Source: a virus (Duplodnaviria > Heunggongvirae > Uroviricota > Caudoviricetes > Ackermannviridae). From it: a DNA stretch of 64,000 nt. The position numbers and the translations under genes were made by a program. The stretch's first letter is position 1. Each line of letters begins with the position of its first letter. The stretch is taken from positions 88,254-152,253 of the IMG/VR virus record IMGVR_UViG_2974596396_000001, one strand, 5' to 3'. The notes beneath the pieces are model-generated. The model was not told the DNA's origin and did no database searches. It saw nothing but the letters and a program-made list of their open reading frames with translations. This document shows positions 6,697 to 55,643 of this stretch, in pieces.

Positions 6697-6723
6697 CGGG
6701 GTTTACTTCTTCAATAAACCCCG
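6697..6723 (+). terminator. Hairpin terminator that encloses the -35 of the next promoter
   Basis: 8-bp stem CGGGGTTT / AAACCCCG with an 11-nt loop. Confidence 0.5.
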
Positions 6724-6729
6724 TATACT
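6701..6729 (+). promoter_or_regulatory. Host sigma70-type early promoter
   Basis: -35 GTTTAC/TTTACT, 16-17 nt spacer, -10 TATACT. AT-rich upstream sequence. The same architecture occurs at 43072 and 55615. Confidence 0.6.
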
Positions 6730-6778: not shown

Positions 6779-7075
6779 ATGAACAACATGCCAACCACCA
6801 AAACTGCTCTGGAAATCGATTCTCGCTTTATCGTTGAAGCATGGGCCAACAGCCAAAACTCTTATGTGTATTCCCTTTATGTCGGTGACACTTATGTTTC
6901 TTGCCTCGGCATCGACGGCTCCAAGAACGAGCACGGCGTGAACGAGCGCTATACCAAAAAGCAGGCTATCGCTGATGCTACCAAATTCGCGACTGACATT
7001 CTGGGTCGCATCAATGCGGGTAAACCGTACAAACGCGGTGAAAAGGGCTATGTCACCCAATTGCTTGGTGCTTGA
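6779..7075 (+). CDS. Early hypothetical protein, first gene after the early promoter
   Basis: GAAGGA RBS. About 50 nt downstream of the promoter. Confidence 0.5.
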   Translation: MNNMPTTKTALEIDSRFIVEAWANSQNSYVYSLYVGDTYVSCLGIDGSKNEHGVNERYTKKQAIADATKFATDILGRINAGKPYKRGEKGYVTQLLGA

Positions 7076-26378: not shown

Positions 26379-26407
26379 TTTACTTGAATAAACATTTGCC
26401 GTATTAT
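26379..26407 (+). promoter_or_regulatory. Host sigma70-type early promoter
   Basis: -35 TTTACT, 17-nt spacer, -10 TATTAT. Confidence 0.5.
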
Positions 26408-30809: not shown

Positions 30810-31097
30810 ATGTCCGGCGTATGGTGTGATGTATTGTTGGTAAGATTTTCAAACGGGATGGATAACCAGATTATTTCATTCTTTTATCCTGTTCCCTTTT
30901 CTTCTATGGGTCTGACTGTCAAGCGCGTTCTTGACATAGAAGAAAAACTCAACGCCATGCCGTATATGGCGCGACCACACGTGCTGGGTTGTGAACTGTT
31001 AAACGAAATGATGATTGACGAGAACCTTGTTGAAACCATCATTACTCGTGAGCAAATGAAAGTAATATTGGCGCAGGGAGAACCCCATGTCGAATAA
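30810..31097 (+). CDS. Hypothetical protein
   Basis: GGAGGT RBS. Inner start of ORF 30768. Confidence 0.45.
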   Translation: MSGVWCDVLLVRFSNGMDNQIISFFYPVPFSSMGLTVKRVLDIEEKLNAMPYMARPHVLGCELLNEMMIDENLVETIITREQMKVILAQGEPHVE

Positions 31098-31407
31098 ACC
31101 GTTTGAACTTAAATTTCGCGTTTGGCATATTCCCCAGGTTCCTGGGATCGCTTTTCATGTTGAGGTTCCAACATTTGAAGAAGCGCAGCGCCTGAAGAAT
31201 ACTCTGGCTGATTACGACCTGTTTCAGTATAACAATAACATCAAGCCGGATTATTGTAATGCTTCCGGCGTTCAAATATACCAACATGATCTGACTGAAG
31301 AAGATCTAAATGATATGGGTCTGGATGATCGTTGGGTTGATATCGAAGATATTGACGAACTCAACGATTATTTTGATCATCTGCGTAGCACAGGGTGGGA
31401 AATATGA
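31087..31407 (+). CDS. Hypothetical acidic protein
   Basis: GGAGAA RBS. Asp/Glu-rich C-terminal half. Confidence 0.45.
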   Translation: MSNKPFELKFRVWHIPQVPGIAFHVEVPTFEEAQRLKNTLADYDLFQYNNNIKPDYCNASGVQIYQHDLTEEDLNDMGLDDRWVDIEDIDELNDYFDHLRSTGWEI

Positions 31408-41100: not shown

Positions 41101-41426
41101 AAGTTGTCCACTTCAAGAAGGAGCCATACGACGTCTACATTGGTCGCCCTGGTAAATGGGGAAACCCGTTCGAGGTTAAAGACCACGGGCGGGGAAACTG
41201 TATTGAGTTGTTTGAAGACGACTTGTATGTGCGCCTGATTGAAGGGGATATCACCGAAGATGAACTCCTTGAATTAGATGGAAAGACCTTGGGGTGCTGG
41301 TGTAAGCCGCGCCCATGTCATGGAGATGTTTATGTCAAAGTGATCGGTCGTATTAAACTATTCCGTAAGTTGGGTAAATCTTTTACTGAATATTTGAGAC
41401 AAACATATGTCAGAAGAGAAAGATGA
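41097..41426 (+). CDS. DUF4326-like protein
   Basis: YIGRPGKWGNPF motif. Confidence 0.45.
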   Translation: MKVVHFKKEPYDVYIGRPGKWGNPFEVKDHGRGNCIELFEDDLYVRLIEGDITEDELLELDGKTLGCWCKPRPCHGDVYVKVIGRIKLFRKLGKSFTEYLRQTYVRRER

Positions 41427-41691
41427 AATTCAGATTGCTTGTGATATCGCTGTCGAGTTATGGAATCAGCGAAACAAACATTATCAGGTGACGTTGACCC
41501 CAAAGCGTTATCTAGAGCAAGGTGGCTTAATAGTCGTTGATGCCGTGTTAGGTTTCAACAAATATACTGATATGCAAATCTTGGACGGGGATTTCACTAT
41601 TGCTTCCAATACAGCTTGGGATGATCCTATGGAATTTGTCTACGGTTGGTTGGAATGCATCGAGGAATCATACCATCTGATCTACGAATAA
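41407..41691 (+). CDS. Hypothetical protein
   Basis: ORF. Confidence 0.45.
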   Translation: MSEEKDEIQIACDIAVELWNQRNKHYQVTLTPKRYLEQGGLIVVDAVLGFNKYTDMQILDGDFTIASNTAWDDPMEFVYGWLECIEESYHLIYE

Positions 41692-41788: not shown

Positions 41789-42403
41789 ATGACGATGACA
41801 ACGTTGAAGGCCATGGCCTTGTCCGTGACCTTTACCATTGCCAGCGGGAATGTGCACGCTTCCCAAAATACAAGTCAATGTGTTTATGATTTCTCTGAGC
41901 AACAACTTAATACGCTGGCAACCGCCTATCACATAGGCAAGACGCAAGACCTTGGTTACACTCTGGCCGCCATATCTTGGCGAGAGAGTCGCGCTGGTGA
42001 AGATGTAGTGTCAATGCGATACGGCCTCAAGGCGGCCAACATGGGAGCCTTTCAGAACAAGGTGAAGACAGTTGGTGATCGCGAAGGTTGTAAGAATCGC
42101 AAGTGTTATGCCAATGTCGCCATAAAGTTGCTGACCGACCAAGAATATGCCGCGCAAGCCGCCCTCGATGAGATGCAGTTCTGGCTGGCCTATCACAATC
42201 AGAATATCCGCAAATCTCTCTCCTCTTACAATGCTGGCTTCGCCCGTAATCCCGCATCGAACGCCTATGCCGCCGACGTCGTGAAGAAAGCTAAATATCT
42301 TCAGAAATGTGTGTCCTTCAAAGGCCAGACCATCTCCGAGGTAGATCCTCAGGTGATCGCCATGAACAAGCGCACGATAGAGAAACTGAAGAGGACAAGA
42401 TAA
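41789..42403 (+). CDS. Secreted lytic transglycosylase-like (SLT domain) protein
   Basis: Signal peptide. WRESRAG (catalytic E-S) and SYNAG (AYNAG motif). Confidence 0.45.
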   Translation: MTMTTLKAMALSVTFTIASGNVHASQNTSQCVYDFSEQQLNTLATAYHIGKTQDLGYTLAAISWRESRAGEDVVSMRYGLKAANMGAFQNKVKTVGDREGCKNRKCYANVAIKLLTDQEYAAQAALDEMQFWLAYHNQNIRKSLSSYNAGFARNPASNAYAADVVKKAKYLQKCVSFKGQTISEVDPQVIAMNKRTIEKLKRTR

Positions 42404-43041
42404 TGAACATCACTCCATCTCAGACCGGATATGAACATATCTTGGTCTTCATCGCTCTACAGGGCGCGAAGGAAGGCATCATCGTATCCGAGTACTCGGG
42501 GACTGTGCGCCTTGCCGATTATGTCGCACCCGAGGCGTTCATTAAGAAGTGCATTGATGCGTGGTGCCTCTATGCCCTCGGCACGTATCCTGCTCCTCCT
42601 GAGGGCGAGCTGTTGTTTACTGTACCGACTCCGGCTGCTGGTGATACGGATGCGATCTTTGCCGATATGCTGGCCAAGGGGTATCTGGTGTATGATATCA
42701 CTCACGATGTCTATTCCTTCACCTCCCTGAACACTGTGTTTGGATTCACCATCACATCTGAAGCCAACATCCCTGACTGGGGCATCTTGGCGTGGGGCGT
42801 TGACGGCCTGGGCGCAACCTATGCATCATCTGATGTCGGTCCTGTTCTGATTGATGATGGTGTAACCATGGAGCAGTACCTTGCCCAGTTCCCTCAACAC
42901 AACATCACAGGCAGCGACATCATTTTGGTTCAGCCTGGTGCTATCGCTCTCCCTCGTTTGGTGGATGGCTGGAAGTCCCAGCTGAAGGACATCATTGCCG
43001 GAATCAGATTCCATATTCCCATCGTGAACCCAGCACCGTAA
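42403..43041 (+). CDS. Hypothetical protein
   Basis: TAATG overlap start. Confidence 0.5.
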   Translation: MNITPSQTGYEHILVFIALQGAKEGIIVSEYSGTVRLADYVAPEAFIKKCIDAWCLYALGTYPAPPEGELLFTVPTPAAGDTDAIFADMLAKGYLVYDITHDVYSFTSLNTVFGFTITSEANIPDWGILAWGVDGLGATYASSDVGPVLIDDGVTMEQYLAQFPQHNITGSDIILVQPGAIALPRLVDGWKSQLKDIIAGIRFHIPIVNPAP

Positions 43042-43055
43042 AAATAATTCAATAA

Positions 43056-43080
43056 AAGGGGCGAAAGCCCCTTTACTTCT
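43056..43080 (+). terminator. Hairpin terminator fused to the next promoter
   Basis: AAGGGGC-GAAA-GCCCCTT. The 3' arm runs into the -35 TTTACT. Confidence 0.6.
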
Positions 43081-43100
43081 TCAATATCCTTCCCTATACT
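43072..43100 (+). promoter_or_regulatory. Host sigma70-type early promoter
   Basis: TTTACT, 17-nt spacer, TATACT. The downstream sequence is almost identical to the promoter at 6701. Confidence 0.6.
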
Positions 43101-43148
43101 TCATTCCATAAGCAGTACGATACCAACTTGAAACGAAGGAGCTATATC

Positions 43149-43484
43149 ATGACACAACTCAAAAACTTCACCGCAGATGACATGTTTGCCTTCCAGGGCG
43201 CTGAGCACTTTGCTGACGGCTCCGTCCCGCGCATCTACTATTTCTCTGATGAAGAAATGGAAGATTTCTTCGCCCTGATGGAAAAGGAATACACAGAAAC
43301 TGATTTCGTCTACGTCATCCACCATGCCGAAGGGTTGTCTCTTGGTTGGACGGCCAACGGCGAGCCGGAAGAAGTGAACTTCCCTGAAGGCATCATGTCC
43401 GAGCGCGTAGAGTACCTGCTGGAAGCCCTGGATCCACACACCCTCCCACTCTGGGCGATGTCAGTTGCCCAAATTCAAAAATAA
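43149..43484 (+). CDS. Early, strongly acidic small protein; a candidate DNA mimic or anti-restriction protein
   Basis: AAGGAG RBS. About 24 Asp/Glu against 7 Lys/Arg in 111 aa. First gene after the early promoter. Confidence 0.5.
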   Translation: MTQLKNFTADDMFAFQGAEHFADGSVPRIYYFSDEEMEDFFALMEKEYTETDFVYVIHHAEGLSLGWTANGEPEEVNFPEGIMSERVEYLLEALDPHTLPLWAMSVAQIQK

Positions 43485-43492
43485 GACAAGGG

Positions 43493-43520
43493 GAGCCGAA
43501 GCTCCTCTTTTGTTTTCGCT
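43493..43520 (+). terminator. Rho-independent terminator
   Basis: GGAGC-CGAA-GCTCC followed by TCTTTTGTTTT. Confidence 0.75.
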
Positions 43521-43563: not shown

Positions 43564-45171
43564 ATGGCCATCCCATCTTTCTTGAACTTTCTTGAAGAGT
43601 CTAAACAATTAGACGAAGCGTTTAACTCATCCCCGTATGAATTGACATTCGGAAAGAAGAACGCTGGTGACATTTTCTTCACATTTGTTGATGAAGACGA
43701 AAAAGAATTCCGTATTCAATTCTATACTCCACAAGGTCTAGGCAAGAATGTTCGCCAAGTCTTTATCGGTCAGAAGCGTGGTTCAACCTATCCAGACGCA
43801 ATCGGTCGTTTCAAGAATCCGATGCGTGTTATCGCATCCATGATTGAAGCAACAAAGCAATTCATGGCGACGCCTTTGGGTAAAACCATTGACGGCTTTG
43901 CAATTAACTTCTCCAAGAAAGCATTGGAGCGTGGTGTTACCCTCCTGCCGAAGATCATCCGTCAGTCCGGCCTGAAGCAGAAGCTCAATGTCATGGACCT
44001 GACGTATACCCCTATCCCTGATCGTGCATTCGTATGGGTTGTGCGTAAAGGTAAGGATCCTGCTCAGGTATTCGATGGTCCGAAAATGAAAGGTGTCACC
44101 TGGGATGACCCAGATAAGGTTGGTGATGTTCCGGTTCAGAACAATACTCCGGATGTGGGGGCTTCATCTTCTGTTGATGATTCCAACGGATGGAAATTAA
44201 CTTCAAACGGGGATCAGCCCATGTTGATATGGGTTGGTAAGGAGAGAGGCCGCATGGTCACGGCAAATATCGCTCCCCACTACGATGTGCCAGGCATGTA
44301 TGTTGGTGCATACATGAATGAAAAATCTGTACGTGGACAAAGCGCCGATTTTATTGCTAGTCAATTGAAATTACCGCAAGTCCCTATCGGTGTCCTGAAT
44401 GATTTCACGAAAATGGCAAGCAAATTCTGGAGTACCCAAGCCGGGGAAGTCGTAAACTCCAAAACCTTAAATATCCCAAAAAATGCTTTAGTCTTTGGTG
44501 AGACTATCAACGGTATGTCCATCAGTTGGAGTGGAATCGATTTCCCTAAAAGTGGGAAGTACGCTGATGCTATAATGACCACGAACATCATATTTGATTA
44601 CATTAACATCAAGGCAAAGTTTACCCCTATGGTTAATCAAAAAGGGCGAACTTTAAACAAACCAATAAGTTATGAAATCCGTTTGAAGAAAGATATTGTT
44701 CAATCCATGATCGATGAAATCTCATCAAAAATGGAATATCTTTCCAGAAACCTCCAACAGTTGAATAGTCAGGCATACAACCCAAACCAGGTTTTCTTGA
44801 ATGATATAACCATCACGGATAAAGGTGAAGTGATTTGGAACGATTACAACTTGTCTGACGGCAAAGTTACACAAATTATGCTGTCCATGATAAGCGCAGA
44901 AAATAGACGCTTGGAGAAAGTGACAAACAAGCCGGATATCACATTACCAAAGAAACAAGCCGAAGTAGTAGAATTTATAAACCGGATGATTGATATTGAT
45001 CTCGGACCTTATTTGAGAGAACCCAAAAAACTTGATGTGGTATTATTTGACTCTTCTGAATTGTCGATAAACCAACTCAACAACATAGAACGCCTGGGAA
45101 GAGAAACAGGAAAATGGTCTCTTCAGTCAAACGGCGGTATGGGTCATGCACTATTTCTGAATGTTTGGTGA
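43564..45171 (+). CDS. Large hypothetical protein (535 aa)
   Basis: AGGAGA RBS. No motif I can assign. Confidence 0.55.
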   Translation: MAIPSFLNFLEESKQLDEAFNSSPYELTFGKKNAGDIFFTFVDEDEKEFRIQFYTPQGLGKNVRQVFIGQKRGSTYPDAIGRFKNPMRVIASMIEATKQFMATPLGKTIDGFAINFSKKALERGVTLLPKIIRQSGLKQKLNVMDLTYTPIPDRAFVWVVRKGKDPAQVFDGPKMKGVTWDDPDKVGDVPVQNNTPDVGASSSVDDSNGWKLTSNGDQPMLIWVGKERGRMVTANIAPHYDVPGMYVGAYMNEKSVRGQSADFIASQLKLPQVPIGVLNDFTKMASKFWSTQAGEVVNSKTLNIPKNALVFGETINGMSISWSGIDFPKSGKYADAIMTTNIIFDYINIKAKFTPMVNQKGRTLNKPISYEIRLKKDIVQSMIDEISSKMEYLSRNLQQLNSQAYNPNQVFLNDITITDKGEVIWNDYNLSDGKVTQIMLSMISAENRRLEKVTNKPDITLPKKQAEVVEFINRMIDIDLGPYLREPKKLDVVLFDSSELSINQLNNIERLGRETGKWSLQSNGGMGHALFLNVW

Positions 45172-45195: not shown

Positions 45196-45216
45196 AAAGC
45201 CCCTTCGGGGGCTTAT
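45196..45216 (+). terminator. Hairpin (weak T-tract)
   Basis: AGCCCC-TTCG-GGGGCT. Confidence 0.4.
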
Positions 45217-45221
45217 AAATA
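45214..45221 (+). promoter_or_regulatory. T4-type late promoter TATAAATA
   Basis: Exact octamer 24 nt upstream of the ATG at 45246. Confidence 0.55.
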
Positions 45222-45245: not shown

Positions 45246-45815
45246 ATGAAACCGTTCATTCAGTATTTCAACGAGCAAGCTGCTCAGCCTCAGACCCATG
45301 CTGGTGTCCAGGGCAAAAGCGTATCCATCAAAAGCCAAGCTGATGGAACATTGTGGTGCTCTGGAGCAGTCATCACCCAGATCACCCCCGACAATCAGGC
45401 TGATGTCTACAACCTGGAACTCACTGACGGCAACACCGCAAAAGTCAAACTGACACCAGATCAGACTCATGGCATCACCCAAGGCCAAGAAGTTGTTGCT
45501 GTCCACGATGGCTTCGAATTCTTCTTTGGTAAGTCGGCCGACAAAGGCCAGGTGACTGAAGGGTATGAAGCTGTCCTGAAGAAAATGGGACAAGACATGG
45601 CTAAAACGCTGGGTGCGAAAACAACTCGCATGAGCGGTCGTCAGGAGTTCGAATATGGTGGCATACCAGGAATTGGTAAGCTGGTGCACATCGAATTTGG
45701 TGGTGAAGACGAGCCGTATGTGATCGTTTCTGTGGGCGGCAAAGAAACAGACTTCAGCAAGGGTAAAACCATGGCTGCCGACATTGCCAAGTTCCTCGGC
45801 GTTAAACCTGTCTAA
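45246..45815 (+). CDS. Late protein, possibly a virion component
   Basis: Late promoter plus GAGGAG RBS. Confidence 0.5.
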   Translation: MKPFIQYFNEQAAQPQTHAGVQGKSVSIKSQADGTLWCSGAVITQITPDNQADVYNLELTDGNTAKVKLTPDQTHGITQGQEVVAVHDGFEFFFGKSADKGQVTEGYEAVLKKMGQDMAKTLGAKTTRMSGRQEFEYGGIPGIGKLVHIEFGGEDEPYVIVSVGGKETDFSKGKTMAADIAKFLGVKPV

Positions 45816-49168: not shown

Positions 49169-49197
49169 TTTACTCTTCAATAATCATGCACTATTAT
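49169..49197 (+). promoter_or_regulatory. Host sigma70-type early promoter
   Basis: TTTACT, 17-nt spacer, TATTAT. AT-rich upstream region. Confidence 0.5.
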
Positions 49198-55594: not shown

Positions 55595-55618
55595 AAAGCC
55601 CCTCAATGAGGGGCTTTA
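55595..55618 (+). terminator. Hairpin terminator fused to the next promoter
   Basis: AAAGCCCCTC-AAT-GAGGGGCTTT. The 3' arm ends at the -35 TTTACT. Confidence 0.6.
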
Positions 55619-55643
55619 CTTTTGAAACCTTCCCACCTATACT
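55615..55643 (+). promoter_or_regulatory. Host sigma70-type early promoter
   Basis: TTTACT, 17-nt spacer, TATACT. Confidence 0.55.

Follow-up and report, generated by a model that had tools for sequence, protein, structure and literature searches.

The open reading frame at positions 43149–43484 on the + strand of the window, i.e. of the complete stretch of 64,000 nucleotides analysed here, is a real gene under purifying selection. It codes for a small, strongly acidic protein with a predicted fold of its own and is part of a promoter-to-terminator cassette in a swappable slot, in which phages of the family Ackermannviridae carry different small genes. The gene is identical to the gene for gp175 of Salmonella phage Se-J (YP_009966897), where it is annotated as 'hypothetical protein'. 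Its deposition under this label, its membership of PHROG 9866 and the occurrence of this cassette type in T4-type phages were already known. The presence of the gene in such a cassette in Ackermannviridae, the polymorphism of the slot and a fold without known relative are new.

A stretch of 4 kb around the ORF shows 100% identity with Salmonella phages Se-H, Se-I, Se-J and Se-N and about 92% identity with allotria, SilasIsHot and others, all of which belong to the Ackermannviridae (Vi1-like phages). Almost all genes of the window are located on the + strand. The gp175 gene was found in the middle of the genome, between SbcCD-like recombination genes and the primase gene, and within a cluster of genes for virion proteins. 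Upstream, the gene order is late sigma factor, SbcCD-like recombination genes, a transglycosylase-like gene and a DUF7270 gene; downstream, it is a large variable protein, three small proteins and the primase. The sequence-only reading had regarded the gene as 'first-early', which does not agree with this position, as the gene is not at the start of an early region.

The slot is bordered on the left by gp174 (42403–43041, + strand), a DUF7270 protein (Pfam E 1e-111), and on the right by gp176 (43564–45171, + strand), a 535-aa protein of PHROG 3867, the C-terminus of which matches an 'internal head protein' PHROG. Proteins of the gp176 type vary considerably in length, with 535 aa in Se-J, 964 aa in allotria, 795 aa in CBA120 and 786 aa in 0507-KN2-1; counterparts in the surveyed loci are located at L002 6565–9459, L003 6085–8472 and L005 3425–5785. 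The N-terminal part of about 300 aa is conserved among these relatives, and the version of LIMEstone1 is split into ORF082 and ORF081. The counterpart in allotria contains an annotated repeat region. The gene at 41789–42403 is designated 'RegB endoribonuclease' in many records and lytic transglycosylase in others. In Pfam, it gives a signal only for the SLT lytic transglycosylase domain, with an E-value of 4.6e-4 that lies barely under the cut-off. The designation 'RegB' is apparently an annotation error passed on from record to record.

The ORF starts with ATG at 43149, the stop codon ends at 43484, and a Shine-Dalgarno sequence AAGGAG (43136–43141) precedes the start codon with a 7-nt spacer. 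ORF, ribosome binding site and stop codon of the 111-aa product were hence verified. An antisense ORF (43101–43439) and an upstream TTG start (43128) were rejected, as both the alignment of homologs and the break in conservation favour the ATG at 43149. The protein contains 22 acidic residues (7 D and 15 E, 20% D + E) and five basic residues (3 K and 2 R) in addition to four histidines, resulting in a net charge of −17 and a pI of 4.17. The strong acidity noted from the sequence alone was thus confirmed, while the counts given there (about 24 acidic against 7 basic residues) are slightly too high compared with the 22 acidic residues and five Lys/Arg observed. Among the 73 annotated proteins of the window, gp175 ranks second in net acidity per residue, at 2.3 SD over the mean. 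It is exceeded by the acyl carrier protein alone, and four others are within 0.03, so that the charge of gp175 is notable, but not unique. The products of 31087–31407 (net −14 in 106 aa, annotated as 'superinfection exclusion') and 41407–41691 (net −12 in 94 aa) are nearly as acidic. A charge-based search for mimics in this phage must weigh these two products as well.

The gene is embedded in a compact unit consisting of a hairpin, a promoter, an unstructured leader, AAGGAG, the ORF and a terminator; it is monocistronic and has terminators on both sides. The first element is a stem-loop at 43055–43074 (+ strand; GGGGC-GAAA-GCCCC with A-rich and T-rich flanks), which has an RNA folding energy of −14.4 kcal/mol (z −3.9). 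Its stem is invariant across genera, its loop varies and its 3' end overlaps with the −35 hexamer. It is the terminator of the upstream unit and at the same time the stem-loop part of the element described below. It is followed by a sigma70-type promoter, TTTACT-17-TATACT, at 43072–43100 (+ strand; −35 at 43072–43077, −10 at 43095–43100), which matches the consensus in 9 of 12 positions. The 5' leader (43101–43148, + strand) ends in the Shine-Dalgarno sequence, is conserved in the alignment and is unstructured, with a folding energy of −2.7 kcal/mol that is no better than that of shuffled sequence. The unit is closed by an intrinsic terminator at 43488–43516 (+ strand), with a 9-bp stem, the loop CGAA and the T-tract TTTTGTTTT. 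Its stable hairpin (43488–43509, −15.6 kcal/mol) follows right after the stop codon, in line with the initial proposal that the gene has its own terminator. An Rfam search of the region yielded only a chance match, to the terminator.

The promoter is conserved as TTTACT-N17-TATAAT/TATACT in Kuttervirus, Limestonevirus and Taipeivirus. In an alignment of six phages from these three genera, a mean identity of 86% was observed over hairpin, −35, −10 and leader, and the similarity stops at the ATG. Conservation across genera, together with the five + strand copies of the promoter class against 0.16 expected, makes the promoter credible. Its strength is a different matter. The match to 9 of 12 consensus positions and a generic promoter scan of the region, in which 7 sites were found against 12.6 expected and hence no local excess, do not demonstrate a 'strong' promoter. 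Of the 'strong early promoter' described before, the sigma70-like promoter stands. No late promoter TATAAATA was found before the gp175 gene; a canonical T4 late promoter of this sequence is located at 45214–45221, ahead of the adjacent virion gene at 45246. The annotators of LIMEstone1 designated the same promoter a 'putative middle promoter' (PMC3296691). Literature searches for Ackermannviridae transcriptomics or for anti-defence work on this gene yielded nothing usable. By analogy, the gp175 gene is probably expressed early in infection.

The promoter belongs to a repeated class. A strict search with a fixed 17-nt spacer returned only the target, and a spacer of 16–18 nt revealed four further copies. 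The copies (+ strand, TTTACT-N16-18-TATAMT/TATTAT) are located at 6702–6729, 26379–26407, 43072–43100, 49169–49197 and 55615–55643. The pattern TTTACT...TA[CT][AT][AC]T with a 16–18-nt spacer thus occurs five times on the + strand of the window and not at all on the − strand, compared to a mean of 0.155 and a maximum of 2 in dinucleotide shuffles, a statistic that is to be taken as indicative, because both the target element and the published consensus were known when the pattern was defined. All five copies are intergenic and positioned 45–62 nt upstream of an ATG, most of them after an AT-rich stretch and a hairpin, and their leaders end with ...GGAACTACA.CATG. Each of them precedes a small hypothetical gene (starts at 6779, 26461, 43149, 49260 and about 55691). 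The copy at 6702 has nearly the whole leader in common with the copy of the target.

These features match the promoter-early stem-loop (PeSL) elements of T4-type phages, in which a stem-loop is located just upstream of a sigma70-like promoter and the element ends with a Shine-Dalgarno sequence and an ATG (PMC4122927). An AT-rich stretch, a stem-loop, a sigma70-like promoter, a Shine-Dalgarno sequence and the ATG of a small gene were all found here. The T4/PST consensus is TTTACW-N17-TAYWAT (PMC4122927); the TATAAT of CBA120 fits it exactly, and the TATACT of Se-J deviates at one position. The stem form reported for PeSLs is A3-4G3-loop-C3T3-4 (PMC4122927; PMC2839356). The genes found with PeSLs are plastic and non-essential, and PeSLs have been linked to the exchange of ORFs (PMC4122927; PMC2839356); the elements of the window share with them the occurrence of several copies per genome, here five in the window, as well as the small uncharacterised ORFs beside the element that are inserted, deleted or replaced between relatives. 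Differences were also observed. The elements described here were found in Ackermannviridae, which are outside the scope of both studies (Arbiol et al. 2010, PMC2839356; Comeau et al. 2014, PMC4122927). The promoter is present in one flanking element only, while the right border consists of the T-tract of the terminator and the conserved leader of the next gene. In addition, the exchange of cassettes is known here from sequence alone and not from a mini-circle or a recombination intermediate.

Comparison of Se-J with CBA120 and moki delineates the slot between gp174 and gp176. The upstream segment from hairpin to ATG is conserved, and so is the segment from the T-tract of the terminator to the next gene. 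The ORF in between is entirely different, coding for a protein of 91 aa in CBA120 and a basic protein of 122 aa in moki. The stem of the terminator differs among the alternative cassettes, while conservation extends from the T-tract onward. A survey of 25 loci added a fourth type of slot ORF (123 aa) in bering-like phages. The slot holds at least three unrelated alternative ORFs, so that one conserved promoter and leader precede at least four unrelated types of ORF or a tandem pair. The gp175 gene is present in 85 phage records, compared to 283 for the neighbouring DUF7270 gene, and is missing in about 70% of the relatives that retain the flanking virion genes. LIMEstone1 carries an extra 75-aa ORF (ORF083, L026 4880–5107) between the homolog of the target and the downstream virion genes. 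Its absence from Se-J is further evidence of indels at this locus. The gp175 gene is accessory and swappable and is located in a recombination-prone slot.

The slot of Taipeivirus and of the metagenomic Ackermannviridae with the most distant homologs contains a conserved 91–94-aa gene directly followed in tandem by the gp175 homolog (L005 2715–3348, L020 4740–5373, L028 76–714, L029 92–739 and L030 1317–1964). The 91–94-aa protein is of the CBA120 orf112 type with the C-terminal tail NASRPFRR. In such two-gene slots, a 21-nt segment with the ribosome binding site (TTGAA..GAAGGAACTA..ATC) is repeated before both genes, and recombination between these repeats would yield exactly the layout of Se-J. 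The tandem arrangement may be the ancestral state, and the 91–94-aa protein and the acidic protein might work together.

Word-indexed, exhaustive and profile searches resulted in a family of 16 clusters with lengths of 109–118 aa. The homologs are confined to Ackermannviridae and are always found in the same slot. An exhaustive HMMER search of 1.8 billion representatives added only three true homologs. Two giant matches were discarded as repeat artefacts: P0008 (5539 aa) aligned only over a 24-residue repeat of the PE/SxPEGxS type, and P0011 (2296 aa) is built of Cna-B-like repeats. The homolog of Serratia phage 3M shows only 24% identity, yet it is located in the same slot and its predicted fold agrees with that of gp175 (TM 0.70). 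Pairwise dN/dS values range from 0.02 to 0.12, which corresponds to strong purifying selection and indicates that the gene is real and constrained. The net charge is between −11 and −17 in 16 of 16 clusters, even where identity has fallen to about 20%. As no more than about six positions are acidic in 75% or more of the members, it is the bulk negative charge that is conserved and not a fixed set of carboxylates. Residues F7, G17, P27 and W102 are invariant throughout the family, and L4, G24, Y31 and L99 are nearly so. The conserved residues are hydrophobic, glycine or proline and therefore point to a conserved fold rather than to a charge ladder.

An AF2 model based on a 10-sequence alignment was obtained with a pLDDT of 89.7 and a pTM of 0.83. 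It predicts an alpha/beta fold that begins with a short strand, helix 9–14, strand 28–31 and helix 34–43 and continues with strands 54–59, 62–69 and 72–79, followed by helices 82–93 and 99–109. Counted on the sequence, helix 34–43 contains five acidic residues. Helix 82–93 carries E85, E88 and E92, followed by D95, with a spacing of i, i+3, i+7 and i+10, which would place these residues in one acidic stripe. A Foldseek search against the PDB returned nothing below E 0.26, the BFVD fold search returned only the family itself, and neither Ocr nor ArdA was present in any of the fold-search lists. Pfam (E ≤ 1), NCBIfam and PADLOC yielded no match to gp175, and PHROG 9866 was the sole match in PHROGs. 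The best hit in a profile search of all PDB sequences was an unrelated enzyme (E 0.47). No homolog was found by tblastn against 72,556 plasmid records. The structure prediction, which the sequence-only reading had suggested as a check for a DNA-like charge ladder, thus gave a confident model without a match to Ocr or ArdA, and the conserved residues mark the fold.

The cluster around the slot raises the question whether gp175 is part of the virion. In LIMEstone1, mass spectrometry identified ORF078, ORF080, ORF081, ORF082 and ORF085 in virions, while ORF084, the homolog of gp175, and ORF083 were not among the 39 virion proteins (PMC3296691). The LIMEstone1 counterparts of gp174 (ORF085) and gp176 (ORF081 and ORF082) are all confirmed virion proteins. 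A structural role, which the sequence-only reading had named as the finding that would speak against its proposal, is accordingly not indicated: the homolog was not detected and its neighbours were. Although absence in one LIMEstone1 experiment is not proof, gp175 is probably a non-virion protein. The capsid-targeting leader of phage T4 has the sequence MKTYQEFIAE. The N-termini encoded at 43564, 45246, 45825 and 2141 (MAIPSFLNFLEE, MKPFIQYFNEQ, MKGFQDFLLKE and MKPELQKLFEG) resemble this capsid-targeting/prohead-protease leader, and several of these proteins have homologs among the confirmed virion proteins of LIMEstone1. Packaged internal head proteins may be encoded by this cluster. The N-terminus of gp175 (MTQLKNFTADD) is without an [LI]-x-E leader, and its L4 and F7 are within the confidently modelled fold. 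An interpretation of the slot ORFs as internal proteins of the T4 kind, with one leader in common, was discarded, since no N-terminus is common to them. The internal protein (IP) locus of T4 is described, in the account of Repoila et al. (1994) given in PMC4122927, as a hypervariable set of packaged anti-restriction proteins. The slot resembles this locus in being variable, in its location among head-associated genes and in the swapping of unrelated ORFs behind a conserved regulatory sequence; it differs in that its ORFs do not share an N-terminal capsid-targeting leader and in that the target was not detected in LIMEstone1 virions.

Based on these results, we tentatively favour, at somewhat less than an even chance, that gp175 is a stoichiometric inhibitor or decoy directed at a basic and probably nucleic-acid-binding surface of a host or defence protein. 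Host RNA polymerase would transcribe the gene from its own sigma70-type pre-late promoter as a monocistronic, terminator-insulated unit, and the product would be a small cytoplasmic protein that is folded and strongly acidic. Early in infection, the conserved negative surface of this product would cover a positively charged site on the host or defence protein. In this respect, gp175 would be DNA-mimic-like in principle, with its own fold and no family tie to Ocr or ArdA. The cassette slot is of the PeSL type and is filled by Ackermannviridae phages with different small genes. The architecture of the unit, the conserved acidity, the accessory slot and the lack of detection of the homolog in LIMEstone1 virions are in favour of such an inhibitor. 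On the other hand, acidity alone is weak evidence in a window with other similarly acidic proteins, the promoter was annotated as a putative middle promoter in LIMEstone1, the family-wide conserved residues indicate a fold and not a charge ladder, and the gene is situated within a virion-protein cluster. Strong purifying selection and the broad range of host genera would fit a conserved housekeeping partner equally well. With neither a functional homolog nor a significant structural neighbour, nothing links gp175 to any target.

In an alternative that we regard as unlikely, gp175 does not inhibit an immune system, but regulates host takeover or a process of the phage itself by binding to a conserved housekeeping protein. 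Candidate partners would be RNA polymerase, a sigma factor, a nucleoid protein or an enzyme of DNA repair that acts on hydroxymethyluracil DNA. Homologs were found in phages of Salmonella, Escherichia, Shigella, Klebsiella, Dickeya, Serratia and Enterobacter, and selection is strongly purifying and not diversifying; both observations suit a conserved target, and the promoter is of an early type. However, most Kuttervirus phages, which have the same biology and DNA modification, do without the gene, and no homology supports any particular target.

It is rather improbable that gp175 serves the surrounding virion cluster, either as an assembly or packaging chaperone for gp176 or as a low-copy internal head protein missed by mass spectrometry. 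Such a role would fit the position between genes whose LIMEstone1 homologs are confirmed virion proteins, as well as the T4-leader-like N-termini encoded by the downstream genes, one of which also has the C-terminal 'internal head protein' match. Yet the gene is preceded by a sigma70-type promoter instead of the late TATAAATA and is separated by terminators from both neighbours, its homolog was not detected in LIMEstone1 virions, and its N-terminus is folded in the model and devoid of the leader. Furthermore, about 70% of the relatives keep the flanking virion genes without it, and the alternative ORFs of the slot have no leader in common with gp175.

The sequence-only reading had compared the protein with Ocr and ArdA, and it is improbable that gp175 is a DNA mimic of this kind with blocking activity against type I restriction-modification and/or BREX. 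Ocr (gp0.3 of phage T7), a DNA-mimic inhibitor of type I restriction-modification and BREX, is an all-helical dimer with a charge density higher than that of gp175 (0.20 acidic, net −17). Both are very acidic phage proteins of about 110–117 aa made before the late genes (for gp175, this timing is by analogy), and with 111 aa, a pI of 4.17 and a net charge of −17 gp175 falls within the range of small DNA mimics. A high D + E content and a low pI are conserved in all homologs, as expected for this class, but the feature is not specific; the sigma70-type promoter and the accessory status would also fit. In contrast to Ocr, gp175 is not encoded by the first gene to enter the cell, shows no sequence similarity to it and has a predicted mixed alpha/beta fold instead of an all-helical elongated dimer imitating bent B-DNA. 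ArdA of plasmids and transposons is likewise acidic, but no Pfam or PDB match links it to gp175, which is shorter and single-domain in the model, and the gp175 family is absent from the 72,556 plasmid records. Small size and acidity hold, whereas gp175 has no sequence or fold match to either family and no sequence match to any PDB chain; the comparison is one of charge alone, and gp175 is not a member of the Ocr or ArdA families. The closest known systems also include small phage inhibitors with an alpha/beta fold, e.g. Ugi (uracil-DNA glycosylase inhibitor) and AcrF1. The DNA of Ackermannviridae contains 5-NeOmdU, a modification that by itself protects against the restriction enzymes tested in vitro. 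The Taipeivirus phage phiHS2 is still moderately BREX-sensitive (bioRxiv 10.64898/2026.05.19.726188), the homolog being known from the sampled members of this genus. These two observations somewhat lower the probability of an Ocr/ArdA-like function.

A further conjecture, which we likewise consider improbable, extends the preferred inhibitor role. gp175 could found a new Ackermannviridae-specific family of nucleic-acid-mimic folds that neutralises a DNA-binding defence or repair enzyme, e.g. one attacking hydroxymethyluracil-derived DNA. The PeSL-type slot would then be an anti-defence 'cassette port', whose other, unrelated occupants would also act in counter-defence.

What stands firmly at present is modest, namely a real gene that belongs to the ordinary-looking 'dark matter' of phage genomes. 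If gp175 is indeed an inhibitor, a new fold would be added to the small set of phage decoy proteins. The slot, with its conserved promoter and leader on the left and the conserved terminator tail on the right, would then be a compact and recognisable site for the exchange of host-adaptation genes in Ackermannviridae, a family widely used for therapy and biocontrol against Salmonella, E. coli O157, Klebsiella and Dickeya.
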